Below are positions 24,041 through 57,232 of a DNA stretch of 64,000 nucleotides, one piece after another; position 1 is the stretch's first letter; every line of letters starts with the position of its first letter. The notes under the pieces are model-generated. The model searched no databases and was not told the origin of the DNA. It was given only the letters and a program-made list of their open reading frames with translations. Both the position numbers and the translations under genes were made by a program. Source of the DNA: a virus; UHGV virus genome UHGV-1451962; one strand, 5' to 3'.

Positions 24041-24053
24041 GGAGGTGCTATAA

Positions 24054-26243: not shown

Positions 26244-26262
26244 AGAATAAGATATTCTTTTC

Positions 26263-26298
26263 TAAGGGGAAGATTTTATTCTTCCCCTTATGTTTTAT
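26263..26298 (+). terminator. intrinsic terminator
   Basis: TAAGGGGAAG (26263-26272) pairs with CTTCCCCTTA (26281-26290), then TGTTTTAT. Confidence 0.7.
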
Positions 26299-26313
26299 AT
26301 AAGGAGGAAAATT

Positions 26314-26916: not shown

Positions 26917-26926
26917 TAAAAATAAA

Positions 26927-26962
26927 ATGGGTAAGAGCTAAATGCTCTTACCCATTTTTTTG
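26927..26962. terminator. bidirectional intrinsic terminator between convergent units
   Basis: ATGGGTAAGAGC (26927-26938) pairs with GCTCTTACCCAT (26944-26955). It is flanked by an A-run on the left and a T-run on the right, so it can terminate both the + strand fibre gene and the - strand DGR-side operon. Confidence 0.8.
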
Positions 26963-26964
26963 TT

Positions 26965-27402
26965 TTATATAATATGATAATAAGGTTTTTCTTCATCAAA
27001 GATTTTCCATCTAAGAAAATCATCTAAAATAATTCCTATTAGACCTAGAATAAACCAAAGACAACTAAAAGATAAACATATTTGTCCTTTATAATTAAAA
27101 GGTAAATGTGAATAATCCCAAATATTAAGTTGTAATTGAATGTTTAAAATATATCCAAATAAAAATTCTAAACTTGTTATAATTGCGGTTCCAATTAATC
27201 CTTGAGCCAATAAAGACCAATTCCAAGGAATATTTTCATTTAAGCTACCTAAAATTAAAAAAGATAAACCGCCTAAGATAAACATTGACCAATGAGTATT
27301 TCCTGAATGTATATATGTTTTGTAAACAAATTCAATTAACCAGTAAATACTTCCGCCAATCAAAAATAATATAGAATTTCTAAAAAAAGAATTAATTTTC
27401 AT
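26965..27402 (-). CDS. polytopic membrane protein (about 4 TM helices), last gene of the DGR-side operon
   Basis: 145 aa with four long hydrophobic stretches: SILFLIGGSIYWLIEFVY, WSMFILGGLSFLILGSL, LLAQGLIGTAIITSLEFLFGYIL and ICLSFSCLWFILGLIGIIL. Its start overlaps the end of the upstream gene by 11 nt. Confidence 0.6.
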   Translation of the reverse strand: MKINSFFRNSILFLIGGSIYWLIEFVYKTYIHSGNTHWSMFILGGLSFLILGSLNENIPWNWSLLAQGLIGTAIITSLEFLFGYILNIQLQLNIWDYSHLPFNYKGQICLSFSCLWFILGLIGIILDDFLRWKIFDEEKPYYHII

Positions 27403-28051
27403 ATTTTAATTCTATGGCTTTAATTTCCTTATAATTTTTAGCAGTATAAATTTGTGTTTTATATTGTTGCATTTTTTTATAATAAGGATAAACAAAATCA
27501 GAAATAGCTAAAGCTAAAGCAGTCAAATTTTCAACTGTCCAAGATGTACATTCTTCTTGGCGAGCATGCCATTCTAATCTAGGATTCTCTGCTCCAGCCT
27601 GAACTGCCATAGAATATTGATTCATATTTAGGCTAATTTCTGATTGATCTTCTTCTGTAACTCCATATTGCTTTCCATCAATCCAAGTCAAAGGATTATT
27701 AATGAGGAAATTAGCGAAAGCTTTTTTATTTTCTTCTTGTTTCATTTTTTGATATTCTTCTAAAGAATAGTAATATGTTAATTCATTTTTTTCATTATCA
27801 TATTTATAAAAATTAGGTTCATAATCTTCTGGAATATTACCATCAAAAGATAAGATTCTTACTGCATCAATAGAACCTGTCATATCTGAATTAGCCAAAA
27901 TGAAATGGCTATTGCAATCTGAGCCTATTACTCCTGTAGCTTCACCTTCCGAGCAAGCAATGACAATACTTGGGTTGGATTGTAATTTGATGTAGCGGAT
28001 TTCCGCAAGGATATCGACTACTATATTTTCTCTATTGATTAATAAATACAT
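27392..28051 (-). CDS. hypothetical protein; C-terminus resembles DUF4376-type phage (fibre-associated) domains
   Basis: 219 aa. Its ATG overlaps the RT stop (TAATG). The C-terminal ..TWIDGKQYGVTEEDQSEISLNMNQYS..WTVENLTALALAISDFVYPYYKKMQQYKTQIYTAKNYKEIKAIEL pattern recalls DUF4376 (from memory). Confidence 0.4.
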   Translation of the reverse strand: MYLLINRENIVVDILAEIRYIKLQSNPSIVIACSEGEATGVIGSDCNSHFILANSDMTGSIDAVRILSFDGNIPEDYEPNFYKYDNEKNELTYYYSLEEYQKMKQEENKKAFANFLINNPLTWIDGKQYGVTEEDQSEISLNMNQYSMAVQAGAENPRLEWHARQEECTSWTVENLTALALAISDFVYPYYKKMQQYKTQIYTAKNYKEIKAIELKYEN

Positions 28052-29307
28052 TATAATATTTCAACTCCTTTAAATAATGAATGGAAATAATTATCAAGAT
28101 TTTGTATAATATAAAAAGTAGTACCTTTATTTATATGTTCTCTAAAACCTCGATATGATTCTTGAATTTCTATATCAGTTATTTTACCTTGTAGCCAAAG
28201 TTGGTGCATTTTTCTCATTTTTCTATATTGTCGCTTTATTTTCTTTTTAAATGGAGTTTGAATAATTTTATTCGTATTAGTTAAATAAAAATCCCATTTT
28301 AAATATTTAAATGGATTATGTTTATCCGAACGTCTTTTATGAGGATAATTATTTTTATCTAGTTTTATTGGACTAATTTTAATTATTTTAGTTTTTCTTT
28401 TGTTACATTTTAAATGTATTTTATTTAATTCATTTTCAATTTTATTAAGACATTCTTTTAAATAATCTTTGTCATTATGCAAAATATAAATATCGTCCAT
28501 ATAACGTCCATAATATTTTAAATGCAAATGCTCTTTTGCATAATGGTCAATTCCATTTAATGCCAATAAAGCTAATAATTGAGATGCTTGACTACCTAAA
28601 CCTAAACTTTTATGATTAAATTCATAATAAGTACAATTTTTATAAAATTGTTTAGGATAAATTATCTTATATTTTTGTTTTTTGATGATATAGTATTGTT
28701 TATTAGGAATAGGAACTGTATCTTTTGTGACTGAAAAACAAAAGGTATCAATAATATAATCAATTAATTTAAATACTCGTTTTTCTTTAATATAATGTTT
28801 TGCCATTTGCTTTAAAGAATTATGGTCTATTGAATCAAAAAATTTTTGAATATCAATTCTTAAACCATAAAAAGATTTTCCTAAACCATATGTTCTGTGC
28901 GCTGCTTGTAAATGTTTACGCACTTCTAGCAAAGCAAAATCAATTCCTTTTCCTTTTAATGTAGCACAATTATCATAAATAAATTTTGGAGTTAGTTCTG
29001 GAATAAGAACTTGCGAACATAATGTATTTTGTGCCAATCTGTCATAAATATGGCACGCTCTTATATCTCTGGGTTTGCCCCGCTCAATTATACTAAAACT
29101 GTTAAAAACTAATTGTTCATAACTGTCATTTTCTAATTGTTCTTTAAGCGTTAAGATGTTATTTAATCTATTTTCTTCAAAATTAACTGTACTATCTTTC
29201 CATCTTACGTTTCGGCAAATAGAATAAGAAGAATCATAAAAAGCGTCAAAATTACAAAAACGCTGGAAAAGATTTTCTTCTATAAAAAATTCTCCTTTTT
29301 TTATCAT
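28051..29307 (-). CDS. DGR-type reverse transcriptase
   Basis: 418 aa with the YMDD catalytic box (..YGRYMDDIYILHND..) and the SLGLGSQASQLL segment matching the G-x-x-x-S-Q signature of DGR RTs. RT motifs 1-2 are present (..ERGKPRDIRACHIYDRLAQ..). It lies 282 nt downstream of a TR that matches a VR. Confidence 0.9.
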   Translation of the reverse strand: MIKKGEFFIEENLFQRFCNFDAFYDSSYSICRNVRWKDSTVNFEENRLNNILTLKEQLENDSYEQLVFNSFSIIERGKPRDIRACHIYDRLAQNTLCSQVLIPELTPKFIYDNCATLKGKGIDFALLEVRKHLQAAHRTYGLGKSFYGLRIDIQKFFDSIDHNSLKQMAKHYIKEKRVFKLIDYIIDTFCFSVTKDTVPIPNKQYYIIKKQKYKIIYPKQFYKNCTYYEFNHKSLGLGSQASQLLALLALNGIDHYAKEHLHLKYYGRYMDDIYILHNDKDYLKECLNKIENELNKIHLKCNKRKTKIIKISPIKLDKNNYPHKRRSDKHNPFKYLKWDFYLTNTNKIIQTPFKKKIKRQYRKMRKMHQLWLQGKITDIEIQESYRGFREHINKGTTFYIIQNLDNYFHSLFKGVEIL

Positions 29308-29589
29308 GCGGTGCTAGATTGTGTGCTCTGACACGCACATCCGCAATCTTAATTAATTATCTGTATAGATAAAAGGTTAAATTCTCCTTAAATGAAAGCT
29401 ATCTATTATAATCTAAGTCTTTTATTTAATATTTCCTCTCCTTCTTGGTTTTAAAACCAATGCGTCCAGAAAATACCAAAATAGATGAGTTATAACATAG
29501 GTTATAATTTTCTGGGGTAACACTTAGTCGTCTCAGTCGATGTCGCCTGCGGCTCCATCACCAGAGACAGTTAGAGTTCTCATCTAATC
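29308..29589 (-). ncRNA. TR-RT spacer; probable structured part of the DGR RNA
   Basis: No ORF. It contains a GC-rich segment next to the TR with GTCTC(29530-34)/GAGAC(29564-68) and GATG/CATC pairings. It also contains nested stems CCAGAAAAT(29466-74)/ATTTTCTGG(29507-15) and TTATAAC(29490-96)/GTTATAA(29501-07), a 16-nt perfect palindrome at 29445-60, and a GC-rich element (29308-29345) abutting the RT ATG. Confidence 0.5.
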
Positions 29590-29693
29590 GGGCGCGAGGT
29601 AATTGTTGTTGTTGTAGTTGGTATTGTTCGCATTACCATCAGAGTTGACATTGCACACATTGTTCGTGTTGTTCGAGTTGTAGTAGCGAGACC
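29590..29693 (-). repeat. DGR template repeat (TR)
   Basis: 104-nt match to 30388..30491 with 83 identities. On the coding (-) strand it reads as about 15 AAY codons (..TAC AAC TCG AAC AAC ACG AAC AAT GTG TGC AAT GTC AAC..). It is non-coding and lies between the Avd-like ORF and the RT. Confidence 0.9.
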
Positions 29694-29726
29694 CGCGATA
29701 TTTTAGAATTTAACCAAATAAAAAAA

Positions 29727-30191
29727 TTATTTGTATCGCTGAGAATAAATTAGATTATCTCTATTTATTCTATCAAGAAGATTTTGTTTTAATTTGTAAG
29801 TAAGTTTAGCAACATATTTGAAAGATTTATTTTTCTTTTTATTATTTAACCCATATTCATAAATACATAAATCTAATTGCCTTAAAATTGAATCACAATA
29901 TCTTATTGATTTATTAAAGTAATCTGCTCTTTCAACTAAAGTTTTTTTATTTTTTAGATTGATTAAACTAGCAGAGAAAGCATATCCATGTGCGTTTTTG
30001 GCACATTTTAAAATATCTGCACCAAAAGCTGAATAATAGTATGGATTACCAAGAATACCTGGTTTAATATGAGAACCATCATCTAATTCTTGATATGGAC
30101 GAACTAAAATTAATACTTGATGGACTAACTTTCTTGCATCATTTAAATAATCATTTTTAGATTGATGCCTATCTTTTTTTCTTACTGACAA
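29727..30191 (-). CDS. avd: Avd-like DGR accessory protein (by position, size and basic helical composition)
   Basis: 154-aa K/R-rich ORF with a TTG start 7 nt after AAAGGAGG. It occupies the canonical slot between target gene and TR. No sequence motif verified. Confidence 0.5.
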   Translation of the reverse strand: MSVRKKDRHQSKNDYLNDARKLVHQVLILVRPYQELDDGSHIKPGILGNPYYYSAFGADILKCAKNAHGYAFSASLINLKNKKTLVERADYFNKSIRYCDSILRQLDLCIYEYGLNNKKKNKSFKYVAKLTYKLKQNLLDRINRDNLIYSQRYK

Positions 30192-30225
30192 ATTAAAAAC
30201 CTCCTTTAAATAACGTACAAGAAAT

Positions 30226-30254
30226 ATTATACCAGAAAATTTTTAAAAAGTCAA
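30226..30254 (-). promoter_or_regulatory. consensus promoter for avd-TR-RT
   Basis: On the - strand: TTGACT (30254-30249), a 17-nt spacer ending in TGG, then TATAAT (30231-30226), about 35 nt upstream of the avd start. Confidence 0.65.
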
Positions 30255-30315
30255 AGAAAAAAAATTTTTAGAAAAAATTTTTTTCCCAGAAAAGGTGAAA
30301 GCATTTTTATACTAT

Positions 30316-30341
30316 GGCATTGGCCCTTTTGGGCCAATGCC
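30316..30341. promoter_or_regulatory. perfect GC-rich hairpin/cruciform just 3' of the VR
   Basis: GGCATTGGCCC (30316-30326), TTTT loop, GGGCCAATGCC (30331-30341). It lies 29 nt beyond the target stop codon. No U-tract follows on either strand. Confidence 0.6.
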
Positions 30342-30369
30342 AATATAACCTTACTGTATAACTTTACAG

Positions 30370-32133
30370 TTATCCAATAACGAAAGCGGGCGCGAGGTAA
30401 CGGTAGTTGGCGTAGTAGGTAAAGTCCGCACCACCATCAGAGTCGACACGGCACACATAGCCCGTGTAGTCCGAGTAGTAGTTGCGAGACCGCTCCCAAT
30501 ACCATTTGGAATCTCCTGAACTGTTACCATTAGCATCTTGAATGTTTTTTATACGGGAGCTGTCACTTGTGTAATAATCATAAGCAGCATTATATCCTTT
30601 AGTACATTCTGCATTGGAAACAGTAGAATTAGCAGTGCTGATTGGAGAATAACTATCTAATCCCATTTCTCTCTCAGAAGGAATCCAAACAGTTTCGTTA
30701 TTATAACTAACATTAGCACTTCTATTATCATCCCAATTATCGCAAGTACCTTTAGATACTGTTTTTATAGATGCTTTAGCAGCACAAGCATTATAAAAAT
30801 TTTGACAATAACTTCTAGCATTAGAACCAATCCATTGTGCGCTATTATCACCAAAAGTAGTCATATTCGGCAAGAGATAAACACTATGAAAAGCTAAAGT
30901 TTTATCTCCATCTTTGTCATAGCCAATACAACGCATTGTAACAGCATTTGCTCCTAAAACATTAGTAGATAAATTCATCTTTTTAGTTTTACCAACTAAA
31001 GCTTGACGTTCTGAAGCAGAAGAATTGTTAAGCCAAGACTTTAAGCCAGCCCACCAAGAAGCATCTCCCGCAGCACTCTCATTTCCCCAAGTCCAATATG
31101 TAGCAGTAGCAGTAATTTTTTTATTCGCGGGAGTTGTATAATTGGTACTGGCTGCTATTGATACAGTAATAGTAGCAGTTCCCGCGGTTGTACCATTGCC
31201 TTTAATGGTAATTGTTTTACCGCTTACTGTTGCTGAAGCCACATTAGAATTAGTAGAAGTTACAGAAATTGTACCAGTAGAATTAGTGGTCACAGTAACT
31301 TTTACACCAGTAGAATAATTAGATGCGTCAATAGAAACAGTAGAAGTGCTTAGACTTAATGTTCCTGTTGCTTTTTGAATAGACCAATCAACATTTTTCG
31401 CGGTTGTTGTCTTATCAGGCCATCTGTAATTATTTTTAGGAGTAAAAGTAGCTGTATATTTTCCTGCATTAATTCCCGATGTAGTTCCTCCAATAGTCAT
31501 GTAACTTGTATTATAATTTGACCAATTTGGACTTTGCGAATTGGCGTTATAAGTTAAAGTTCCAGTTTGAGAAGGAATAGGAACTGTTTTTCTTTCTACT
31601 GTTACAGAAAAAGTAGTAGTTTTAGTAATACTATTTTCTGTATAAGAAACAGTAATTGTTTGAGTACCAACTGTATTTAAAACAGAAGGTGAAGTTGTCC
31701 AACCAGAAACAGTAGCGGTTTTACCATCAGAATAAGTGGCAGTAACAGACATTCCGGCAGATTCAAATGTCTCGCCATATTCATAAATTGTCTTAGTTGG
31801 TTTTGTGCTTGTGATGCTGGTTAGTGCATGGATAACAGTAACTGCTTGCTCGGCGGTACAAGTAACTCCTCCTTCAGAGTAAGTAATAGTAACTTTAGTT
31901 ACTCCATCAGTTAAAGGAGAAGGTGTTACAGTATATCCAGTTACCGCAGTAGAAGAAACAACAATATTATCAATGGCATAATTGGCAGTTATAACCATTC
32001 CTGTTGTTTCAAATTCTTGTCCAGCAACGTAAGATGTACGGTTTGGTGGAGTAGTAACTTCAATAGAGTGGAGTGCTATTGAGCTTCCGCCACCTTTTCC
32101 GCCTTGTTCAGTTAAAATGCATTTAACAGGCAA
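30370..32133 (-). CDS. DGR target protein: Ig-like repeats plus a C-terminal lectin-fold-like variable domain (putative receptor-binding or fibre protein)
   Basis: The track ORF 30370..32154 begins inside its own SD (TTG ATA AGG AGG). The more likely start is the TTG at 32133, 9 nt after GGAGG. There are repeated ~90-aa segments (..VTGYTVTPSPLTDGVTKVTITYSEGGVTCTAEQAVTV.. / ..VSGWTTSPSVLNTVGTQTITVSYTENSITKTTTFSVTV..). The C-terminus ..WYWERSRNYYSDYTGYVCRVDSDGGADFTYYANYRYLAPAFVIG is the VR. Confidence 0.85.
   Translation of the reverse strand: MPVKCILTEQGGKGGGSSIALHSIEVTTPPNRTSYVAGQEFETTGMVITANYAIDNIVVSSTAVTGYTVTPSPLTDGVTKVTITYSEGGVTCTAEQAVTVIHALTSITSTKPTKTIYEYGETFESAGMSVTATYSDGKTATVSGWTTSPSVLNTVGTQTITVSYTENSITKTTTFSVTVERKTVPIPSQTGTLTYNANSQSPNWSNYNTSYMTIGGTTSGINAGKYTATFTPKNNYRWPDKTTTAKNVDWSIQKATGTLSLSTSTVSIDASNYSTGVKVTVTTNSTGTISVTSTNSNVASATVSGKTITIKGNGTTAGTATITVSIAASTNYTTPANKKITATATYWTWGNESAAGDASWWAGLKSWLNNSSASERQALVGKTKKMNLSTNVLGANAVTMRCIGYDKDGDKTLAFHSVYLLPNMTTFGDNSAQWIGSNARSYCQNFYNACAAKASIKTVSKGTCDNWDDNRSANVSYNNETVWIPSEREMGLDSYSPISTANSTVSNAECTKGYNAAYDYYTSDSSRIKNIQDANGNSSGDSKWYWERSRNYYSDYTGYVCRVDSDGGADFTYYANYRYLAPAFVIG
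30388..30491 (-). repeat. DGR variable repeat (VR), encoding the last ~35 codons of the target protein
   Basis: Pairs with the TR. There are 21 differences; 20 are at positions where the TR coding strand has A, and 14 of 15 TR AAY codons differ. The shared GC-rich 3' end CCTCGCGCCCG is IMH-like. Confidence 0.9.
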
Positions 32134-32199
32134 GGTATAAGACCTCCTTATCAAGAATTATTATTAGAGTTTTAAAACTCCATCATTATTTATAGAATA

Positions 32200-32211
32200 A
32201 AGTACACCTTT
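32200..32211. repeat. left arm of a perfect 12-bp inverted repeat (AAAGTACACCTT)
   Basis: Reverse complement of 32384..32395. Together the arms bound a 196-bp segment in the divergent intergenic region. Confidence 0.9.
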
Positions 32212-32239
32212 TAGATTAATTGGGAACGTACTTTCCATA

Positions 32240-32287
32240 AAAAATGTAAAATTGGGAAAAGGATATAAAAATATCCTTTTCCCAATA
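32240..32287 (-). terminator. perfect 16-bp-stem hairpin that acts as a terminator only for leftward transcription
   Basis: ATTGGGAAAAGGATAT (32252-32267), AAAA loop, ATATCCTTTTCCCAAT (32272-32287). Read on the - strand it is followed by TTTACATTTTTT. Read on the + strand it is followed by ATAAAAATAT, with no U-tract. Confidence 0.5.
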
Positions 32288-32308
32288 TAAAAATATATTC
32301 TAAAAGTT

Positions 32309-32337
32309 TGGATATCTTATCCTTTTCATCTATACTT
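32309..32337 (+). promoter_or_regulatory. promoter directed at the 32425 fibre gene
   Basis: TTGGAT (32309-32314), a 17-nt spacer, then TATACT (32332-32337). It lies inside the IR-bounded segment. Confidence 0.5.
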
Positions 32338-32383
32338 AAAGATTATTTTAATTAATTTTCCTTAGATTGACCAATGTTTCATA

Positions 32384-32395
32384 AGGTGTACTTTT
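32384..32395. repeat. right arm of the 12-bp inverted repeat (AAGGTGTACTTT)
   Basis: Perfect reverse complement of 32200..32211. Confidence 0.9.
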
Positions 32396-32424
32396 TAAAC
32401 TTATATTTTGAAAGGAGTTTTTAA

Positions 32425-34170
32425 ATGGCTGTTCAATGTGTACTTGTCGGAAAAGGCAAGGATGATGTATTTACTGCTGTTTATGGCGAAACTACATTTG
32501 ATAAAGTGTTAAAAGCTTATAATGAAAATAAAGTAGTTCAAGTGATTTATCAAAATCGTATTTATTATTTAGATAATACTACTGTTGTAGATTCTCCTGA
32601 AGCATTTTCTTTTATTTCTGCTTTTAGTAATCAAAATGATGAAGCTGGTGAAATAAAGCATTATGTAATAAGTTTAATGACAGGAGATAGTTGGTCTGGG
32701 CCTTTCTTACAGAAATCTACTCCAGCAACTCACGCGAATACTCATAGTAAAAATGGTGATGATCCACTTACCCCCGCAGATATTGGAGCTATGGAATTAT
32801 CAGAAAATGTTCTTAAACAATCAAATGAAGATATTACTTCTCAAGTAGCGCAAGCTTTATTTGGGGATTTAGTTCCTTTTAGCGGTGGAACCATGACTGG
32901 TTTGTTAAATGTTCTTACTCCTGTTAGAGATAGTAATGCTACTACTAAAAAGTATGTAGATGATGCTTTGAGTGAGAAAATTGGAATGGATGGCATTGGC
33001 GATTTGCATGTATGGAAGAAGACTATAATAACAAAACAGGAGATTCCAGCAAGTTTTACTTTAGGTGATGTACACTCTGGTTCGTTTCGTTTTGTTAGTG
33101 GTGAAACTAATGTGTTGTTAGTAGGTACTCCTAAAGTTAATGAGAGTGGTGTCGTTACCTTAACAAACTCTGCGCAGTATAATTTTAATTATAATTCTTC
33201 ATCTCCTAGTATATCTGATCTGCGAGGACAGTATTGCATGTTTACCATGATAGCCGATCAATTTTCTAGTTTTACTGCCAATAAAGTTTTTTATATACCC
33301 ACTGATGCAAACTATATTTCTTTATCAAGTTCTAAAAATATTACTAAATATCAAGATGTTAATGGTACACCTAAAATTCCTGCCGAAGTAACTACTACCT
33401 ATCCCGCATCTACTAATCCCAATGCGTATCAAGAGGGGAGCGATGCAAAACCAGCAGGATATGTACTTGGTAATGTGATAACAGGTTCATTTTGTATTGG
33501 TAATACAACAGCACCTACGAGAGCTGCTTATTATGTCGCATCTGATATTTCTGTATCTGATAATGGTGTTTTATCTATTTCAACACAAACAAATATAACT
33601 ATTGGTGGTAATTTTTTTGTATCTAGCCGTGATTTAATTGCTGGTAAATTTATACAAATTTATAATAAAGGGTCTATGTCTTCTGTTTTATCTGAACCAT
33701 TCACAACAGTACCAGGCCCAATTATTTATATTCCGAATGATGTAAACTTAACGTCTGGCGGTGATGGAAATTTAAATTTATATATTGATCGCTACCAACC
33801 TATTACTGGCTACGCTGCTATCCCCGCAGGCACCACTATTGAATATCTGGGGAAGTTGGGAGATAAGACTAGGGTAATAATTGGCTCGTATATTGGGACA
33901 GGGGTCTGCGGGGCAGAGAATCCGACCAAAATAAAAACGAGTTTTTTACCGAAACTTGTAGCAATAAATGGAGTAGGAAATACCGGCAGTACGGGCATTA
34001 TTCTGTTTTTTCGAGATATGAACTATGCGTTCTCAGAAATCGGCTCAAGTACCAACTTTAACTTTACTAATATAACCTGGTTATCAGACGGAGTACATTG
34101 GTATTCTAGCAAAGTCCTTATGCAGGGGAATAAGCAGGGGGCAATTTATAAATACATTGTTATCGGTTAA
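32425..34170 (+). CDS. tail fibre protein (581 aa)
   Basis: SD GAAAGGAGTTTTTAA-ATG. It contains ..THANTHSKNGDDPLTPADIGA.. and ..FSGGTMTGLLNVLTPVRDSNATTKKYVDDAL.., motifs typical of phage tail fibres (from memory). The C-terminal ~125 aa have a distinct, GC-richer composition. Confidence 0.7.
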   Translation: MAVQCVLVGKGKDDVFTAVYGETTFDKVLKAYNENKVVQVIYQNRIYYLDNTTVVDSPEAFSFISAFSNQNDEAGEIKHYVISLMTGDSWSGPFLQKSTPATHANTHSKNGDDPLTPADIGAMELSENVLKQSNEDITSQVAQALFGDLVPFSGGTMTGLLNVLTPVRDSNATTKKYVDDALSEKIGMDGIGDLHVWKKTIITKQEIPASFTLGDVHSGSFRFVSGETNVLLVGTPKVNESGVVTLTNSAQYNFNYNSSSPSISDLRGQYCMFTMIADQFSSFTANKVFYIPTDANYISLSSSKNITKYQDVNGTPKIPAEVTTTYPASTNPNAYQEGSDAKPAGYVLGNVITGSFCIGNTTAPTRAAYYVASDISVSDNGVLSISTQTNITIGGNFFVSSRDLIAGKFIQIYNKGSMSSVLSEPFTTVPGPIIYIPNDVNLTSGGDGNLNLYIDRYQPITGYAAIPAGTTIEYLGKLGDKTRVIIGSYIGTGVCGAENPTKIKTSFLPKLVAINGVGNTGSTGIILFFRDMNYAFSEIGSSTNFNFTNITWLSDGVHWYSSKVLMQGNKQGAIYKYIVIG

Positions 34171-34222
34171 AAAAAGAATTTTAATGTACTACATCAACAA
34201 CCAAAAGGAGGAAATAAATTAA

Positions 34223-34534
34223 ATGTTTTATATTAATTCAATAAAACAAAATAATAATTATGGTAATCCTATGGGTCAATATTTTAAAGACTCAATACAA
34301 TTACCAGATGAATTATTAAACAATTATCTTGAAACAAAAGGATTTTGTAATTTTGAAATTCAAGATAATATTATTACAAAAATAATTGTAAATCAAAATG
34401 ATTTAGATGATTATAATAATAACCATCTAGAGGTTAAACCAGAACCATCAGCAGAGCAAGATATAAATGCAATGTTAGTAGACCAAGAATATAGAATAAC
34501 ATTACTAGAATTAGGTATGAAAGGAGATTCCTAA
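34223..34534 (+). CDS. XkdW-like small fibre-associated protein
   Basis: 103 aa with SD AAAAGGAGGAAATAAATTAA-ATG. The size and the C-terminal ..DINAMLVDQEYRITLLELG.. resemble PBSX XkdW-type proteins that follow fibre genes (from memory). Confidence 0.35.
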   Translation: MFYINSIKQNNNYGNPMGQYFKDSIQLPDELLNNYLETKGFCNFEIQDNIITKIIVNQNDLDDYNNNHLEVKPEPSAEQDINAMLVDQEYRITLLELGMKGDS

Positions 34535-34668
34535 TGTTATATAGAGTTTTAAAAAGAATGATTGAAGCAGGTCAAACAGAAGGCCTGCAAGAAAAAATAG
34601 ATATTTTCTTTGCGGCTGGCCGCATTACCGCAGACCAATACACTGAACTCACTAAATTATTATCATAA
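34534..34668 (+). CDS. XkdX-like small protein (44 aa; absent from the ORF track)
   Basis: The ATG overlaps the previous stop (TAATG). My translation is MLYRVLKRMIEAGQTEGLQEKIDIFFAAGRITADQYTELTKLLS. The ..G.IT..QY.ELT.. pattern and the position after the fibre and XkdW-like genes match XkdX-family proteins (from memory). Confidence 0.45.
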   Translation: MLYRVLKRMIEAGQTEGLQEKIDIFFAAGRITADQYTELTKLLS

Positions 34669-34689
34669 TTCCCAAAATTTTTGGGAATT
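34667..34689 (+). terminator. hairpin at the end of the fibre operon, just upstream of the recombinase gene
   Basis: AATTCCCAAAA (34667-34677), T, TTTTGGGAATT (34679-34689): perfect 11-bp arms. The stem is AT-rich and the U-tract is weak (TTTAG), so it could equally be an operator. Confidence 0.35.
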
Positions 34690-34730
34690 TTAGATTAATC
34701 GTCTACTAATAATTTTCTTATATAGTAGAG

Positions 34731-35357
34731 GTGAAAAAGGTGTTATATGGTTATGCAAGAGTTTCTTCCCGCGACCAAAATATAGATAGACAAATAATTG
34801 CATTAAAAGAGGTCGGCGTAGAAGAAGAAAATATCTTCATAGATAAACAATCAGGTAAAGATTTTAATAGACCTTCTTATCAAGAATTATTAGAAACAAT
34901 TAAAACAGGAGATATGGTAATTATAAAATCCATAGATAGATTAGGTCGAAATTATTCAGAAATTTTAGAACAGTGGAGAATTATTACTAAAGTTCTGAAT
35001 GTAGATATTAAAGTTATTGATATGCCGTTACTCGATACCTCCTACGGGGATGGTACATTAAATAACTTTATAGCTGATTTAGTTTTACAAATTCTCTCTT
35101 TTCAGGCAGAACAAGAGAGAATTTGTATTAAACAGCGACAAGCAGAAGGAATAGCTGCTGCAAAACAAAAAGGAGTTAAATTTGGCCGACCCCGCAAACA
35201 GCTTCCTTCTAATTTTGAAGATTTATATTATAGATATTTAAATAATGAACCAGTGGATAGATTATCAAAAGATTGTAAAGGATTATCTAAATCTACTTTG
35301 CGGTTGCGACTACAAGAACGTCATTCTAAAGATAAAGCATTGGGTGTAATTATTTAA
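34731..35357 (+). CDS. small serine recombinase (resolvase/invertase family)
   Basis: 208 aa with a GTG start after SD GAGGTGAAAAAG. The N-terminal catalytic region is VLYGYARVSSRDQNIDRQ...DRLGRN, and there is a C-terminal HTH-like region after ..GVKFGRPRK... The size and layout match the Hin/Gin/resolvase type, not a large serine integrase. Confidence 0.85.
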   Translation: MKKVLYGYARVSSRDQNIDRQIIALKEVGVEEENIFIDKQSGKDFNRPSYQELLETIKTGDMVIIKSIDRLGRNYSEILEQWRIITKVLNVDIKVIDMPLLDTSYGDGTLNNFIADLVLQILSFQAEQERICIKQRQAEGIAAAKQKGVKFGRPRKQLPSNFEDLYYRYLNNEPVDRLSKDCKGLSKSTLRLRLQERHSKDKALGVII

Positions 35358-35414
35358 TCTTTCTATTGTTTATTTTAATTATAATGAAACTAATATAGAA
35401 AGTAGGTCTATAAT

Positions 35415-35819
35415 ATGAATTATTATGAATTATGGACACAAATTTGGCAGATTTGTTTAGTCCCCTTATTTGCGGCTTTAACTGCTTTTGTTGTTAAATA
35501 TTTAAATGCTAAAAGTCAAGAAGTTTCTAAAAATATAAATAATGCAACTGCTGAAAAATATATAGAAATGATTAATAATACTGTTACAAAATGTGTTATT
35601 GCTACAAATCAAACTTATGTTAATAGTCTTAAAGAGCAAGGTAAGTTTGATGTAGAAGCTCAAAAGAAAGCTTTTAAACAAACTTATGAAGCAGTTATAA
35701 GTATTTTAAGTGAAGATGCAAAACAATATATTAAAGAAACAACCAATGATTTAAATACGTATTTAACACAGTTAATAGAAGCAGAGGTAAATAAACGTAG
35801 ATTAGAACCAGAAAAATAA
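35415..35819 (+). CDS. putative holin (LL-H-like: one N-terminal TM plus a long helical tail)
   Basis: 134 aa. N-terminal hydrophobic helix ICLVPLFAALTAFVVKYL followed by a charged helical region. It sits in the canonical position after the fibre genes. The family assignment is from memory. Confidence 0.45.
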   Translation: MNYYELWTQIWQICLVPLFAALTAFVVKYLNAKSQEVSKNINNATAEKYIEMINNTVTKCVIATNQTYVNSLKEQGKFDVEAQKKAFKQTYEAVISILSEDAKQYIKETTNDLNTYLTQLIEAEVNKRRLEPEK

Positions 35820-35822
35820 TTA

Positions 35823-35862
35823 AAGGCTCCCTTAGTTTTTCGCTAAGGGAGCCTTTTTTTTT
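35823..35862 (+). terminator. intrinsic terminator
   Basis: AAGGCTCCCTTAG (35823-35835) pairs with CTAAGGGAGCCTT (35843-35855), then a T-run. Confidence 0.85.
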
Positions 35863-35972
35863 GTCAAAATTTTTTCCAAATTTTTTGACAAAATTGGGAA
35901 ATCGTATGGGAATAAAATTTATATATGTATGGAAGGTAAAGGAAATAAAAAAATTTTTAGAAAGGAAAAATT

Positions 35973-36410
35973 ATGTATCCATACAATAACAATAATTATT
36001 ACCCACAGCAAACAATGCGTCAGCCGCAAACATATATCAATCCAACTCCGCAGATAATGGCGCCTCCGGGGTTGAAAGGACGTATGGTTTCTTCATTAGA
36101 AGAAGCAAGGGCAACAAGTATTGATTTTGATGGCTCTGTTTTTTATTTTCCAGATTTAGCGAATAAGAAAATTTATACAAAGCAAATTAATATGGATGGT
36201 ACTGCTACATTAAATATGTATGAGTTAAAAGAAGGCCCAACTTCTAATAATTCTACTTATGTAACAAGAGAAGAATTTAATAATGCTTTGAATAAAATTC
36301 AAATGAACTTTAATTTGTTAAATAATCAGCAAGAACCACCTGTGGCGCAAGTTCCTCCTCCTGAACCTGCTCCAGAAGAAACGCAAAATGCGCCTACATA
36401 TAAATTTTAA
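35973..36410 (+). CDS. hypothetical N/Q/P-rich protein (145 aa)
   Basis: SD AAAGGAAAAATT-ATG. The termini are low-complexity (MYPYNNNNYYPQQTMRQPQ.. and ..EPPVAQVPPPEPAPEE..) and flank a conserved-looking core (..KGRMVSSLEEARATSIDFDGSVFYFPDLANKKIYTKQINMDGTATL..). Confidence 0.55.
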   Translation: MYPYNNNNYYPQQTMRQPQTYINPTPQIMAPPGLKGRMVSSLEEARATSIDFDGSVFYFPDLANKKIYTKQINMDGTATLNMYELKEGPTSNNSTYVTREEFNNALNKIQMNFNLLNNQQEPPVAQVPPPEPAPEETQNAPTYKF

Positions 36411-36421
36411 GGAGGAAAATA

Positions 36422-36664
36422 ATGCAAGCAAATCCAATGCAAATTTTATCAATGATTAAAGGAGGTAAAAATCCTCAACAATTAGTGATGAATATTTTAG
36501 AGCAGCAAGCACAAAATAATCCTATGGGTGCTAACTTATTACAGCTAGTTAAAGATAATAAGACTGCGGATATTGAACAAATTGTTAGAAATTATGCCAA
36601 AGGTCAAGGCATAGATTTCGACAAAGAATTTAATGCTTTTAAACAAATGTTAGGCATTAAATAA
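36422..36664 (+). CDS. hypothetical protein (80 aa)
   Basis: SD AAGGAGGAAAATA-ATG. No motif recognised. Confidence 0.5.
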   Translation: MQANPMQILSMIKGGKNPQQLVMNILEQQAQNNPMGANLLQLVKDNKTADIEQIVRNYAKGQGIDFDKEFNAFKQMLGIK

Positions 36665-36692
36665 TTTTATAAAACAAAAGGAGAATAAAAAA

Positions 36693-37529
36693 ATGTTTAA
36701 TACTGCAAATTCTAGCTATTCTTTAGCTGATATCGCCGCAGCTACCGGCGGTAATCGTTGTAATGATGATGGTTTTGGTGGAGGCAATGGCTGGTGGGTC
36801 ATCCTTCTGTTCTTATTCATGATGAATGGATGGGGCTGGGGTGAAAACGGCTATGGTCGTAGCGTGTCACCAATGGGAGGTACAACTACCCGTGAAGAAA
36901 TTGCATATGGCTTTGATATGAATGGCTTGGAGAACTCTGTTCGTGGTATTCAAAATGGCCTATGTGATGGTTTTTATGCTCTTAACAATAGTCTTTTAAC
37001 CGGTTTTGGCAATCAAGCTTTGAATACTCAGCAAGGTTTTGCTAGTACCGATAATGCTATTTGTACTCTTGGTTATCAGACTGCTCAGTTGGCTAATGGT
37101 ATCACTTCTGATATGAACCAGAATACTAATACTATTACTCTTGGTATGAATAATGGTTTTAATGGTGTTACTGCTGGTTTAACTGCTTTGGGTACACAGT
37201 TACAGTCTTGTTGCTGTGAAACCGGGCGTGCTATTGAGCGTGGTTTTAGTGACTTAAACTATAACTTAGCTACTCAGTCTTGCGACACTCGTAGAGCTGT
37301 TCAAGATAGCACTCGTGAAATCTTAGATTTCTTAACTCAGGATAAGATTGCTTCCTTACAGTCCGAGAATCAGACTTTGAAATTTGCGGCTTCTCAGCAA
37401 GCCCAAAATGCTTATCTGGTTAGCGAACTTGGTCAGAAAGCTCCTATCCCCGCTTATGTAGTGGCTAATCCTTATTGCAACTGCGGTTCCGCAAATTCTT
37501 GCAATAGCTGCTGCTCTAGCATTTATTAA
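36693..37529 (+). CDS. hypothetical membrane-anchored, Cys-rich protein (278 aa)
   Basis: SD AAAAGGAGAATAAAAAA-ATG. It has a Trp/Gly-flanked hydrophobic helix (GNGWWVILLFLFMMNGWGWG), an internal CCC, and a C-terminal CNCGSANSCNSCCSSIY. GC is markedly elevated relative to its neighbours. Confidence 0.55.
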   Translation: MFNTANSSYSLADIAAATGGNRCNDDGFGGGNGWWVILLFLFMMNGWGWGENGYGRSVSPMGGTTTREEIAYGFDMNGLENSVRGIQNGLCDGFYALNNSLLTGFGNQALNTQQGFASTDNAICTLGYQTAQLANGITSDMNQNTNTITLGMNNGFNGVTAGLTALGTQLQSCCCETGRAIERGFSDLNYNLATQSCDTRRAVQDSTREILDFLTQDKIASLQSENQTLKFAASQQAQNAYLVSELGQKAPIPAYVVANPYCNCGSANSCNSCCSSIY

Positions 37530-37553
37530 TTAAATTTGGAGGATAACTAATTT

Positions 37554-37976
37554 ATGGAAATTACAGCCAATGCTGCTCAATCAGTTGCAGCCAATCAAAA
37601 TGTTCTTATGACTGATACAGTAGTTGGTGGAAGTTGTTCAATGGTTCATCGTAATGGTAGTGGATTAGTTACTTTGCGCGGCCTGGCTAGCACCCAGTGC
37701 CGCGCTCGTTTTAGAGTAACTTTTGGCGCTAATATAGCTGTTCCTACTGGTGGAACCGCAGGTGCTATTTCTTTAGCTATTGCTATTAACGGCGAACCTG
37801 TTGCTACAACAACCATGACAACTACTCCAGCCGCAGTCGATCAGTACAATAACGTGTTTAGTAGTATCTTTTTAGATGTTCCTAAAGGTTGTTGTTCTCA
37901 GATTAGTATAAAAAATATTAGCACTCAAACAGTTAGCGTTCAAAATGCTAATCTAATTGTTGAACGTGTTGCTTAA
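37554..37976 (+). CDS. hypothetical beta-rich protein; ending resembles the BclA C-terminal (TNF/C1q-like) domain
   Basis: 140 aa with SD TTGGAGGATAACTAATTT-ATG. The ending ..SVQNANLIVERVA resembles my recollection of the Bacillus BclA C-terminal domain ending ..SASIIIEKVA. One line (37681-37740) has 53% GC by hand count. Confidence 0.35.
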   Translation: MEITANAAQSVAANQNVLMTDTVVGGSCSMVHRNGSGLVTLRGLASTQCRARFRVTFGANIAVPTGGTAGAISLAIAINGEPVATTTMTTTPAAVDQYNNVFSSIFLDVPKGCCSQISIKNISTQTVSVQNANLIVERVA

Positions 37977-37990
37977 TTTGGAGGTACAGT

Positions 37991-38545
37991 ATGGAAAGAC
38001 TAAAAAATATGAGAAATTGTTTAATGGCTTGTGTTGAAGGGGAATTGGCCCATCTTGATACTGTTGATGCTCATGAATTAGGTGAAGCAGTAGATATGAT
38101 AAAAGATTGTGAAGAAGCGATGTATTATCATACTATTAGAAAAGCTATGGAAGAGTCTGATTATAATATTAATAATAGAGATATGGATAAACATCATGGT
38201 AGAATGTATTATCCTACTCCTAGAATGTATTATACGATTGATCCTAAAATGAAGAAACATATAAAAGATGAGGATGATTATGTATATTATGATGATATGT
38301 ACATGATGCCTTATAAGCCTTTAGAAAAAATGCGGGATAAGCGTGAAGGTCGTAGTCCTATAAGCCGCAAAACTTATATGGAATCAAAAGAAATGCACAA
38401 AGATAAGCCCACTCAGCTAAAAGAGTTAGAACACTATATGCAGGAATTAGCTAGTGATATAGTGGAAATGATAGAAGGTGCATCTCCCGAAGAAAAACAA
38501 ATGATACAACAACGCATTAATTCTATTTCCGCTAAAATACAATAA
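37991..38545 (+). CDS. hypothetical protein (184 aa), Y/M/D/K-rich middle
   Basis: SD TTTGGAGGTACAGT-ATG. No motif recognised. Confidence 0.5.
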   Translation: MERLKNMRNCLMACVEGELAHLDTVDAHELGEAVDMIKDCEEAMYYHTIRKAMEESDYNINNRDMDKHHGRMYYPTPRMYYTIDPKMKKHIKDEDDYVYYDDMYMMPYKPLEKMRDKREGRSPISRKTYMESKEMHKDKPTQLKELEHYMQELASDIVEMIEGASPEEKQMIQQRINSISAKIQ

Positions 38546-38877
38546 TGTATACAGTAAATGTAAATGGTGAAACATGGACAATAGAATTTGTTTCTTCTTC
38601 TAATTATAATTTAATGAGAAGTGATGGAACTTATACTATTGGAGTTTGTGATGATGAAACTAAAACCATTTATATAGATAAAAATTTAAATAATAGTTAT
38701 TTGCAAAAAGTTTTGTGCCATGAGATAACCCATGCTGCAATGTTTAGCTATGATATAAATTTATCCCTTGAACAAGAAGAATTATTAGCTGATTTATTAG
38801 CAACATATGGAGAAGAAGTAGTACAAAAAGCAAATATATTATTTAAACGTATAAAAGAAAATAGGGGAAGCTATTAA
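38545..38877 (+). CDS. small HExxH metallopeptidase-like protein (SprT-like size class)
   Basis: 110 aa. The ATG overlaps the previous stop (TAATG). It contains ..VLCHEITHAAMF.. (an HExxH motif). Confidence 0.45.
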   Translation: MYTVNVNGETWTIEFVSSSNYNLMRSDGTYTIGVCDDETKTIYIDKNLNNSYLQKVLCHEITHAAMFSYDINLSLEQEELLADLLATYGEEVVQKANILFKRIKENRGSY

Positions 38878-38898
38878 ATTAGCTTCCCCTATTTTTTA
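38861..38898. terminator. shared bidirectional terminator at the convergence of the late (+) and replication (-) arms
   Basis: ATAGGGGAAGCT (38861-38872) pairs with AGCTTCCCCTAT (38881-38892). It is A-rich to the left and T-rich to the right. Confidence 0.75.
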
Positions 38899-39308
38899 CT
38901 TTCTATATCACGAATCGGCAATTCACAAACTCGTTCATAAAAATCCTGTCCTCGACCATTGCCTTTTAATCCTTCATGGTAAGTTTTCCACATAGCAGTA
39001 AGTGCAGAAAATTCATCAGACGTCAAATAACCTCTTTCTAAGTATTCTCGACAAAGATTTATTAGTCTTTCACTATAATCTTCTTTTAACGCTTCAAATT
39101 TCTTATTCTCTATATCAATCTGTTCTTGAAGAGGATTCAATTTTTCTTCTATTGTTTCATCTAATTTATTTTCATTTAATTTTTCAAATGCTTCTTTATA
39201 CTGCTGAAATTTTTTATCTAAATTTCTAAAATAAGCTAATAAACCAGCAGAAATCAAACCAAAAATAATTTCAAACCAATGTTCGACAAAGAAGGCGCCT
39301 GTTATCAT
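38889..39308 (-). CDS. hypothetical membrane protein (N-terminal TM plus coiled coil); start revised
   Basis: TTAAGGAGGTTGAAAAATCTT-ATG at 39308; the track start at 39395 lacks an SD and overlaps ruvC. It has the hydrophobic helix WFEIIFGLISAGLLAYF followed by an E/K-rich coiled region. Confidence 0.5.
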   Translation of the reverse strand: MITGAFFVEHWFEIIFGLISAGLLAYFRNLDKKFQQYKEAFEKLNENKLDETIEEKLNPLQEQIDIENKKFEALKEDYSERLINLCREYLERGYLTSDEFSALTAMWKTYHEGLKGNGRGQDFYERVCELPIRDIESKK

Positions 39309-39381
39309 AAGATTTTTCAACCTCCTTAAATTGTTCATTACATTTAAAAATAGTTTGAAATTAATTAATATATTTTGTCCT

Positions 39382-39891
39382 TTAAGACCAATCAAATCCT
39401 CTATTTAAAGCATGATAACCAATACAAATTGCATCAGCTTCATCTTGCGTAGGTTTTATTTTGTATTTATTAATTACAAAAGCCTGCGCGTTTTTTTTCT
39501 GCTCATTTCTAATTTTCCCAGTTACACCGCAAGTTTTTTTCCAAGCAGAAGAAGAAACAACATCATATTTAATGTTTTCTTTTTCCAATAAACTTAATAA
39601 TGCTCCTTGTACATGGGCAAGTTTTTTATAAGTAACTACTCCAAAATCTTTCGCTTTTATCTTTTTGCCATTTGGTTCATATTCTTGTAGTTGTATATCT
39701 TCAATAATAACTTCTACATCCCCATTTAGAGTATCAATTATATTCTCTAACCAATCTCTTAATTTAGAAATTCTTAGCATATATTCTCCTTCTGGATGAA
39801 TATGACCATAAGTAATTAACTCTTGGCCTTTAAATACAGCATATCCAGTAATGGCTGTACTTTGATCTAAGGCCAAGAGAAATTTAGACAT
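39382..39891 (-). CDS. ruvC: RuvC-like Holliday junction resolvase
   Basis: N-terminal ..LALDQSTAITGYAVF.. and C-terminal ..TQDEADAICIGYHAL.. acidic catalytic motifs. 169 aa. Confidence 0.75.
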   Translation of the reverse strand: MSKFLLALDQSTAITGYAVFKGQELITYGHIHPEGEYMLRISKLRDWLENIIDTLNGDVEVIIEDIQLQEYEPNGKKIKAKDFGVVTYKKLAHVQGALLSLLEKENIKYDVVSSSAWKKTCGVTGKIRNEQKKNAQAFVINKYKIKPTQDEADAICIGYHALNRGFDWS

Positions 39892-57150: not shown

Positions 57151-57232
57151 AAAACAATCTCCTTTTTAAATAAAATAATTTTAAAGAAAAATATGAATGA
57201 GCTTTTTAAAGCTCATTCATATAAAATTTTAA

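Follow-up and report, generated by a model that had tools for sequence, protein, structure and literature searches.

The window analyzed here is a 64,000-nucleotide stretch of the virus genome UHGV-1451962. The locus of interest is a cassette of six + strand ORFs spanning positions 35973-38877, whose products, termed p1 to p6 below, are 145, 80, 278, 140, 184, and 110 residues long. All six genes were found at the coordinates given in the original prediction, and the features of the region are listed below.

35415..35819, + strand: LL-H-type single-TM "holin", the upstream context of the cassette, matching phrog_13712 "holin" at 2.9e-32
35822..35856, + strand: intrinsic terminator dividing holin and cassette, with a 15-pair stem including 7 GC pairs and then a T-run
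35859..35893, no strand assigned: palindrome TTTTGTCAAAATTTTT / AAATTTTTTGACAAAA, an inverted repeat with 16-nt arms that are 88% complementary
35973..36410, + strand: p1, whose N-terminus is rich in N/Q/P/Y; a conserved beta-rich core of ~60 aa follows, then a short helix and a tail rich in Pro
36422..36664, + strand: p2, an 80-aa Q/N-rich helical protein
36693..37529, + strand: p3, a membrane-anchored, Cys-rich, long-helix protein matching phrog_16490 at 1.3e-38
37554..37976, + strand: p4, a C1q/TNF-fold beta jelly roll encoded on its own, in which C49 and C113-C114 are invariant
37991..38545, + strand: p5, with helical N- and C-terminal parts and a variable Y/M/D/K/R-rich low-complexity middle
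38545..38877, + strand: p6, a predicted 110-aa minimal HExxH metallopeptidase (HEITH), coupled to p5 by translation
38856..38897, both strands: bidirectional terminator with a 16-18-pair stem on both strands and a perfect 16-nt inverted repeat

Organization and composition of the cassette

The cassette had been described as a self-contained late-strand block, and with a terminator at each end it does form a unit of its own. The upstream terminator starts directly 3' of the holin ORF, and the downstream one, at the end of p6, is common to the convergent - strand unit encoding RuvC, dUTPase, and other proteins. The holin, whose hydropathy peaks at residues 13-27, had no Pfam match; it is co-conserved with the cassette in large relatives and was syntenic in 13 loci. 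The palindrome sits within the 116-nt spacer preceding p1 and is a candidate promoter or operator. No canonical sigma-70 promoter stood out, and the palindrome half-site was not enriched elsewhere in the window. A search of positions 34000-39600 with Rfam returned no RNA family. Strong ribosome-binding sites, predicted for the whole block, precede p2 through p5 (GGAGG or AGGAG), but that of p1 is weaker (GAAAGGA) and p6 has none. The start of p6 overlaps the stop of p5, which indicates translational coupling. The N-termini of p1, p2, p4, p5, and p6 are without signal-peptide-like features.

The odd protein chemistry noted earlier was borne out by residue counts for p1, p3, and p5 and by the HEITH motif of p6. 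The p1 protein contains 18 Asn, 17 Pro, and 11 Gln residues and is related to phrog_21718 (1.8e-8). A profile search with p1 retrieved 28 loci, small phages among them. Neither Pfam nor the PDB yielded a match to p1, and a scan of 21 p1 homologues produced noise only. The p2 protein is 40-61% identical across large relatives. Small phages encode ~75-aa proteins (phrog_22984) in the same position, for which hhalign detected no significant homology to p2. The p5 protein (21 Glu, 19 Met, 18 Lys, 16 Asp, and 14 Tyr) has 1,500 homologues, all without a name, and belongs to no Pfam or PHROG family; its large-phage and small-phage versions were likewise not significantly related by hhalign. Therefore, only p1, p3, and p4 are shown to be common to phages of both sizes.

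Judged by its motif and profile matches, p6 is a conserved HExxH peptidase, as the original prediction had suggested. It scored above the cut-off for Pfam DUF6782 (2.4e-6; 27.4 bits against 27.0) and just under that for Peptidase_M78 (1.7e-4; 21.8 against 22), and matched phrog_1233 at 7.4e-19. The HExxH and downstream acidic ligand motif were present in 20/20 homologues. Among PDB sequences the best match was the minigluzincin MJ1213, which was not significant (E 0.3). Small phages encode a 125-aa Cys/His protein.

No named function was found for p1 through p5 in Pfam, PHROGs, NCBIfam, or PADLOC. Together with the PDB-sequence searches, this agrees with the earlier statement that the cassette encodes no standard virion, lysis, or replication function, the peptidase p6 being the exception. 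Single-sequence or profile searches of p1, p3, p4, and p6 against solved structures gave nothing significant. Literature searches turned up neither virion proteomics nor functional work on these proteins, and no papers on the PHROG and DUF identifiers of the cassette.

The hand counts of GC that first drew attention to the region were exact, with 32 of 60 nucleotides at 37681-37740 and 13 of 60 at 38581-38640. The span 36693-37976 has a GC content of 41.0% compared to 30.3% for the whole window, and p3 (0.417) and p4 (0.407) are the GC-richest two among 50 ORFs (mean 0.30, sd 0.044). Composition of amino acids by itself would give 0.362 and 0.383, respectively; the residual due to codon choice is +0.057 in p3 (z 2.9, exceeding every other residual in the window) and +0.027 in p4 (z 1.3). 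The GC spike is thus mostly a consequence of Ala/Gly/Thr/Ser/Cys-rich protein composition. Other positive outliers in codon residual were a virion structural gene (1796-2737), whose codon bias that of p3 resembles, and 56179-58189. The proposal that higher GC marks abundant proteins is consequently plausible for p3 with its virion-structural-like codon bias, but does not account for most of the spike.

The p3 and p4 proteins

From the N-terminus, p3 comprises a conserved peptide, a Gly-rich linker, a hydrophobic anchor, a second Gly-rich linker, a long helix, a P-x-P-A-Y motif, and a Cys-rich tail. The anchor, WWVILLFLFMM at residues 34-44, is short and Trp-flanked, and the hydrophobic segment spans only 11-16 residues. 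The long helix covers residues 79-246 (~170 residues) and carries an invariant CCC at 173-175; W34 and W35 are likewise invariant in the p3 alignment. The AF2 model had a pLDDT of 64 overall and of 80-85 in the helix, and placed helices at 34-44 and 79-246. The protein contains 12 Cys among its 278 residues, with 33 Gly and 30 Asn. Over 60 homologues, the N-terminal tail averaged +0.93 / -2.98 in charge and the C-side flank was neutral; this acidic tail weakly suggests an N-out, C-in topology. The helix showed no heptad periodicity, so that an oligomeric coiled coil is an assumption. A hendecad reading was also dropped, as power at 3.6-3.67 was only weak. More than 7,700 homologues of p3 were found, none of them named, and p3 had no Pfam, NCBIfam, or PDB-sequence match.

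The p4 protein, the most conserved product of the cassette, stands alone as a jelly roll with the C1q/TNF fold, of the BclA-CTD/ExsF type. Its best structural matches were the F-BclA CTD (15.9), the BclA CTD (14.8), and ExsFA (14.0). By sequence, no Pfam family was detected at E <= 1, and phmmer against PDB sequences gave no BclA match. The protein has 140 residues and no repeats. Among the best 150 of 797 representative relatives, lengths ranged from 71 to 196 aa and no fusion of p4 to a stalk or shaft was seen.

Occurrence of the module and the readings it bears on

No match to the cassette came from a megablast search of 50,697 phage records. Co-occurrence across genomes, which the original prediction had proposed as a check, nonetheless revealed the six genes in the same order in related phages of ~120-175 kb, and a p1-(p2)-p3-p4 core in small temperate phages. 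Wherever a locus offers enough sequence, p4 comes immediately after p3, and a small beta-rich Cys-containing protein always directly follows p3. Butyrivibrio virus Ceridwen, a phage of Butyrivibrio fibrisolvens, carries the p1-p3-p4 core, and p3 relatives were found in C. perfringens, Bacteroides, and crAss-like phages. The Gly-hydrophobic-Gly anchor and the P-x-P-A-Y...CGC tail recur in the Clostridium, Bacteroides, and crAss-like phage relatives. The p4 profile had no homology by hhalign to the proteins following p3 in CPD1, Bacteroides, and crAss-like phages, and the slot after p3 is taken by unrelated beta-rich families. Neither the tail type of p3 nor its N-terminal motif co-varied with the family in this slot. 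One slot family with a Cys-rich N-terminus may recall Ena subunits, a likeness that received no support from Pfam or the PDB; sequence searches of the alternative slot family against solved structures gave nothing significant.

The original prediction had speculated that a BclA-like protein next to a Cys-rich protein recalling CdeC/CdeM implied remodeling of the exosporium or spore surface. In its favor, p4 finds its top structural matches among exosporium or endospore-appendage proteins, and ExsF is likewise a stand-alone C1q-like trimer (PMC12357932). The Cys-, Tyr-, and Gln-rich partners lack signal peptides, and such proteins recall the chemistry of spore-coat proteins. Of the traits that characterize BclA, p4 has the C1q/TNF-fold trimerization domain type, but it falls outside Pfam BclA_C and has neither collagen repeats nor a GXX collagen-like stalk N-terminal to the head, and its relatives are all short. 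NCBIfam detected the exosporium leader (TIGR03720) in none of the six proteins and no other sporulation family, and p3 matched nothing named, CdeC/CdeM-like families included. Nor is the module restricted to exosporium-bearing spore-forming hosts: its core occurs in the Butyrivibrio fibrisolvens phage, p3 relatives occur in phages of non-sporulating hosts (the Bacteroides and crAss-like phages), and the 31/31 genome matches were phage-like contigs in MAG bins and not sporulation loci. The presence of the core module in phages whose hosts do not sporulate means that it does not serve as a spore-surface kit, and we consider the exosporium reading extremely improbable.

The position of the module varies among genomes, indicating that it is a portable accessory module. 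It follows the lysis genes in the window, the large relatives, Ceridwen, Dulem virus 33, and Bajarodcaudo virus 5, and adjoins a "pholin" in the crAss-like cr1_1. In Dulem virus 35 and Bajarodcaudo virus 2, portal or minor capsid genes flank it on one side and major capsid genes on the other; in Dulem virus 36 it comes right behind the receptor-binding protein, and elsewhere it follows an integrase or lies among recombination genes. Of about 12 annotated genomes, 3 have structural genes next to it. Among relatives with TAG recoding, in-frame TAG codons occur in the cassette as well as in fiber and holin genes, whereas NrdD-type genes have almost none, and this shared pattern indicates late-class behavior of the cassette. 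The cassette reads best as a portable late accessory module of gut phages, not as a core virion, lysis-enzyme, or replication function, and it is not spore-specific.

The main rival to the membrane assembly proposed below would have the products borne on the virion. In this case, p3 and p4 would make up a fiber of the head or tail, with a C1q-like knob, or would be internal or ejection proteins, assembled onto particles in the cytoplasm; the cysteines would lend extracellular stability, with the hydrophobic segment serving as a socket or a membrane-insertion element at infection. The proximity to portal, capsid, and receptor-binding genes in the Dulem and Bajarodcaudo viruses just named is in keeping with this, as are the late-class behavior, the abundance-like codon bias, and the lack of signal peptides. 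Relatives of p3 carry the labels "viral fiber" or "spike" from other annotators, phage fibers commonly bear C1q/TNF knobs, and the slot after p3 is exchanged among unrelated beta-rich families, as is often seen with fiber tips. However, the module crosses sipho-, myo-, and podo-labeled and crAss-like genomes without a shared attachment partner, lies outside the structural block in most genomes, and is its own transcription unit in the window. Moreover, p4 exceeds the other cassette genes in conservation, which sets it apart from receptor-binding tips, and it is unfused to a shaft in the relatives surveyed; a Trp-flanked hydrophobic anchor is also unusual in fibers. On balance, we regard a place on the virion as rather unlikely.

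The frequent position directly behind holin or endolysin genes, or next to the "pholin" of cr1_1, also raises an accessory role in lysis. By analogy with i-spanins or XhlA-type proteins, p3 might act with the holin at the membrane, completing envelope disruption or timing lysis. Lambda Rz combines an N-terminal anchor with a long helix and conserved cysteines, and the AF2 model and Cys columns of p3 reveal the same features; in addition, no endolysin family match was found near the holin of the window. A constant linkage to holin and endolysin genes was not observed, however, the module being far from lysis genes in several phages. Most hosts are monoderm, no lipoprotein partner was seen, and no cassette protein has a lipobox. 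The p3 protein matched no PHROG lysis family, and the match of p1 to the PHROG "spanin" had an E of 0.079. A C1q-fold partner and three low-complexity proteins fit no known lysis scheme, and we think a lysis role decidedly unlikely.

Superinfection exclusion or receptor masking would have an anchored stalk and knob bar other phages or stop the loss of progeny on debris. The membrane anchor, the module's own terminators, its portability across phage types, and its moron-like place between lysis genes and integrase in temperate carriers are consistent with such a role. Against it, none of p1 to p6 matched a PADLOC defence model at E <= 0.1, the module is also present in apparently virulent large and crAss-like phages, and its behavior is that of a late gene set. 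Five to seven genes with abundance-like codon use would be atypical of an exclusion system, and p4 has no export signal. We consider exclusion quite improbable.

A proposed membrane assembly and its comparison with known systems

The reading we favor, tentatively and as a real possibility that falls short of probable, is that the cassette encodes a late-made, hydrophobically anchored stalk-plus-knob assembly at the membrane of the infected cell. All six proteins, none with a signal peptide, would be abundantly synthesized in the cytoplasm during the late phase of infection. The p3 protein would enter the cytoplasmic membrane via its anchor, perhaps in the weakly indicated N-out, C-in orientation, and might then oligomerize into a stalk of ~25 nm. 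The p4 protein would trimerize, as C1q/TNF domains do, and join the p3 stalk. The low-complexity proteins p1, p2, and p5 could serve as assembly or matrix partners, with p6 trimming one of them, and the many cysteines might bind metal or cross-link upon opening of the cell. The outcome would be a layer of stalks and knobs on the membrane of the cell as it lyses. The very high conservation of p4 counts against this membrane stalk-and-knob reading, which does not account for it. Also counting against it are the shortness of the hydrophobic segment, the weak topology signal, the missing heptad periodicity, the failure of the p3 tail and N-terminal motif to co-vary with the downstream family, and the two phages in which the module sits within the head-gene cluster.

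A further possibility, which we hold to be very improbable, is a gut-specific, host-independent kit of phages of Bacillota and Bacteroidota, and possibly of gut-methanogen viruses, in which a Cys-cross-linked stalk would bear a C1q/TNF head targeting the intestinal surroundings instead of the microbial host, namely mucus glycans or animal C1q- or TNF-receptor-like molecules. If true, this would constitute a direct phage-animal interface, and the conservation of p4 would mirror a conserved animal ligand.

Whichever the site of action, public metagenomes contain more than 7,700 distinct relatives of p3, and likewise more than 7,700 of p4, none with a name, a Pfam domain, or a paper, and the two travel together between very different gut phages. 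Their core module is present in gut phage genomes by the thousands. A module so common and conserved probably confers a general fitness advantage in the gut. Siting it on the virion, the lysing cell, or elsewhere would functionally place a large part of phage dark matter. Carriers in culture are Butyrivibrio virus Ceridwen, C. perfringens phage CPD1, and Bacteroides phage C3_41T2LP; the module products concerned are QHJ73766, QHJ73768, and QHJ73769 in Ceridwen, CPD1_036 to CPD1_040 in CPD1, and genes 00036 and 00035 in C3_41T2LP.

Several known systems share parts of this architecture. The minimal HExxH peptidases (DUF6782, Peptidase_M78/ImmA-IrrE, and the minigluzincins) are like p6 in size, in the HExxH motif, and in the downstream acidic motif. 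Lambda Rz-type i-spanins are half the size of p3 and have no sequence or PHROG kinship with it. The cysteine-rich proteins CdeC and CdeM share with p3 their Cys-richness alone (12/278 in p3), with no sequence kinship. In fibers with TNF-like knobs, such as the tail fibers of cyanophages A4 and A-1(L), PRD1 P5, and the Sf6 needle knob, the knob is fused to the shaft and variable, whereas p4 is unfused and highly conserved and p3 has a membrane-type anchor. The CTDs of BclA and F-BclA, found in the exosporium nap and at the F-ENA tip (PDB 1wck, 9h38), are only 14-16% identical to p4, which is phage-encoded, always stand-alone, and found also in phages of non-sporulating hosts. ExsFA/BxpB (PDB 7r1m), 15% identical to p4, is likewise a stand-alone C1q-like protein of ~140-170 aa. 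In its trimeric form it serves as the docking site for the N-terminal leaders of BclA and F-Anchor, the leader peptides of these fibrous partners binding in the trimer clefts (PMC12357932). In contrast to such leader docking, the N-terminal motif of p3 does not co-vary with the presence of p4. The TNF-superfamily type II membrane ligands, exemplified by EDA-A1 (PDB 1rj7), offer an analogy only: in the cassette, stalk and head are encoded by separate genes, the stalk is predicted to be alpha-helical and not collagenous, and the head has no evident export route.

Operon layout and GC content

The self-contained six-gene block of the original prediction was borne out: six closely spaced plus-strand ORFs (p1-p6, numbered 5' to 3') form a real, cleanly delimited operon at 35973-38877.

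Features of the cassette and its boundaries
35822-35856: terminator (15-bp stem and T-run), directly 3' of the single-TM 'holin' gene
35859-35893: palindrome, TTTTGTCAAAATTTTT / AAATTTTTTGACAAAA
35973-36410, +: p1, 145 aa
36422-36664, +: p2, 80 aa
36693-37529, +: p3, 278 aa, Cys-rich candidate helical stalk
37554-37976, +: p4, 140 aa, stand-alone C1q/TNF-fold protein
37991-38545, +: p5, 184 aa
38545-38877, +: p6, 110 aa
38856-38897: perfect bidirectional hairpin, closing the block; the RuvC, dUTPase, and NrdD genes beyond it are convergent

The ribosome-binding sites of p2-p5 are of the GGAGG or AGGAG type and that of p1 is weaker; p6, which overlaps the p5 stop, has none. The amino-acid biases listed in the original prediction, such as the N/Q/P-rich p1, are correct. 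Neither an Rfam RNA family nor an antisense ORF of notable size was found at the cassette. Situated 3' of the holin terminator and 5' of p1, the palindrome is a possible operator or promoter element; its half-site showed no enrichment in the rest of the window. The upstream 'holin' matches phrog_13712 (2.9e-32) and has no Pfam match, its label resting solely on the PHROG annotation. No ORF scanned around it (23432-39395) matched an endolysin family.

The hand counts behind the proposed GC spike (32/60 and 13/60) were exact on recount. The GC content of 36693-37976 is 41.0%, versus 30.3% for the window, and p3 and p4 are the GC-richest two among 50 ORFs. Expected GC was computed for each ORF from its amino-acid composition with the window's own codon usage. 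Composition alone predicted 0.362 for p3 and 0.383 for p4, and most of the excess is thus due to proteins rich in Ala, Gly, Thr, Ser, and Cys. Codon choice left a residual of +0.057 for p3, more than for any other ORF in the window, and of +0.027 for p4; a virion structural gene (phrog_2729, 1796-2737) and 56179-58189 had similarly positive residuals. The suggestion that high GC marks abundant proteins is thus plausible for p3, yet it accounts for the smaller share of the spike.

Other features of the window, from a phage genome probably ~137 kb in length
5317-13932 and 13987-18306, +: very large late-strand ORFs (2,871 and 1,439 aa)
28051-29307, -: reverse transcriptase (phrog_1423, 3.4e-75)
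30370-32154, -: adjoining 594-aa ORF (phrog_37900)
34731-35357, +: serine DNA invertase (Pfam Resolvase 3e-30; phrog_125 7.5e-51)

The reverse transcriptase and the 594-aa ORF, whose second-position GC is very high (0.536), resemble a diversity-generating retroelement and the gene it targets. The invertase gene lies between the holin and a 581-aa gene that is fibre-like, and a 24-nt direct repeat (96% identical; 32140-32163 and 34869-34892) connects the invertase gene with the beginning of ORF 30370-32154.

Relatives, genomic position, and recoding

The proteins p3 and p4 each gave more than 7,700 matches among 8,000 scored candidates, none carrying a name or a Pfam domain, and p5 gave 1,500. 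A p4 profile run against 1.84 billion representatives returned 797 clusters; the best 150 of these measure 71-196 aa, and p4 is thus without a stalk fusion among them. All 31 matches in species-representative genomes lie in phage-like contigs inside MAG bins. Related contigs of ~120-175 kb retain the order holin-p1-p2-p3-p4-p5-p6 followed by convergent RuvC, and p4 is by far their most conserved gene (51-84% identity to the window protein, versus 31-57% for p3 and 28-43% for RuvC).

In profile searches, p1, p3, and p4 were common to small phages of ~35-60 kb, including Dulem virus 33 and the cultured Butyrivibrio virus Ceridwen. These carry a Q-rich ~75-aa protein at the p2 position and a p5-like protein after p4, without significant homology to the large-phage versions. 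Directly upstream of p1, small temperate carriers encode a 125-aa protein (phrog_3754; L001 3984-4361, L002 3337-3717, L015 2242-2631, L038 4042-4422, and others) with conserved 'GDCTVRA' and 'GHVV', which looks like a papain-type Cys/His enzyme. Large phages instead have the HExxH protein p6 at the opposite end of the module.

Relatives of p3 that share its anchor and tail are found in C. perfringens phages, Bacteroides phage C3_41T2LP, and many crAss-like Suoliviridae. The position directly after p3 is occupied by one of three families, all small, beta-rich, and Cys-containing, mutually without detectable sequence similarity; one has a Cys-rich N-terminus starting M-x-C.

Genes at the position after p3 in relatives
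L040 5505-5882; L043 5860-6279; L049 5720-6103; L050 5857-6261
L041 4599-5141; L042 5795-6205; L052 5735-6148

Pfam DUF7841 proteins lie beside p3 relatives in the Bacteroides phage (L041 5994-6395, 5e-16) and in crAss-like cr1_1 (L042 4060-4803, 2e-39). A weak p3-family match (E 1.7e-4; depositors' label phrog_16490) was found in virus vir335 (L051), whose host is given as Methanomassiliicoccales, and clear p4 loci (L016, L028) in contigs from Methanobrevibacter MAG bins; these could reflect archaeal hosts or mis-binning.

In the window and its large relatives the module comes after lysis genes, as it does in Ceridwen, Dulem virus 33, Bajarodcaudo virus 5, and cr1_1. In Dulem virus 35 and Bajarodcaudo virus 2 it is flanked by portal or minor capsid genes on one side and major capsid genes on the other; in Dulem virus 36 it comes after the receptor-binding protein gene, and in Dulem virus 39, which has all six genes, after an integrase gene. 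In Bacteroides phage C3_41T2LP it sits among RecT and resolvase genes. These varied positions, together with its own terminators, identify the cassette as a portable accessory module. Its head-module locations and matches to fibre knobs support a virion fibre or decoration, the leading rival reading, which we nevertheless consider rather unlikely. An accessory role of the cassette in lysis appears improbable, and so does superinfection exclusion, for which PADLOC gave no match.

In relatives of the window phage (loci L005, L010-L014, L016, L019, L020, and L022), p3 and p4 carry in-frame TAG codons at positions occupied by Gln. Nine p4 genes contain 11 internal stops, every one of them TAG, and the genes end in TAA, indicating that TAG is read as Gln in these relatives; the window phage is not recoded. 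In the ORF-by-ORF listings of L011 and L013, in-frame TAGs are present in the fibre, holin, and cassette ORFs and almost absent from NrdD-type ORFs. Recoded stops have been proposed as a mark of late genes in recoded gut phages, and if this holds, the cassette counts among the late genes.

A putative membrane-anchored assembly

The p3 model, of low overall confidence, predicts at pLDDT 80-85 a short helix at 34-44 (WWVILLFLFMM) and a single long helix at 79-246, the latter lacking a heptad signal. Conserved in 60 homologues are W34, W35, a CCC triplet (173-175), additional Cys columns, and a P-x-P-A-Y motif preceding the Cys-rich tail. Their N-tail is acidic (mean +0.93 / -2.98) and the C-side flank neutral, which hints weakly at an N-out, C-in orientation. 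The remaining five proteins lack a signal-peptide-like N-terminus. p1, p2, and p5 contain low-complexity regions and had no named relatives in database searches; p6 is a minimal HExxH peptidase (DUF6782 at gathering score; phrog_1233 at 7e-19; motif in 20/20 homologues).

The guess of a BclA-C-terminal-domain-like fold for p4 was right, and the spore-surface role built upon it failed every test except fold. p4 has no BclA_C membership, collagen stalk, or exosporium leader, p3 matched no named Cys-rich spore family, and carriers include phages of non-sporulating hosts; spore-surface remodelling is thus most improbable. We tentatively favor p3 as an anchored stalk with p4 as its C1q-fold partner, the two assembling late at the cytoplasmic membrane with possible help from p1, p2, and p5, and p6 trimming the assembly. 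The downstream family shows no co-variation with the tail or the N-terminal motif of p3, which counts against specific p3-p4 docking.

The cassette encodes a very widespread, unnamed module of recognisable architecture and putative function, beyond a chance collection of orphan genes and short of a demonstrated new system, and three cultured carrier phages make decisive experiments feasible. A concrete model for partner binding by p4 may, by analogy, come from ExsF, a C1q-like trimer that stands alone and clamps the leader peptides of fibrous partners (PMC12357932).
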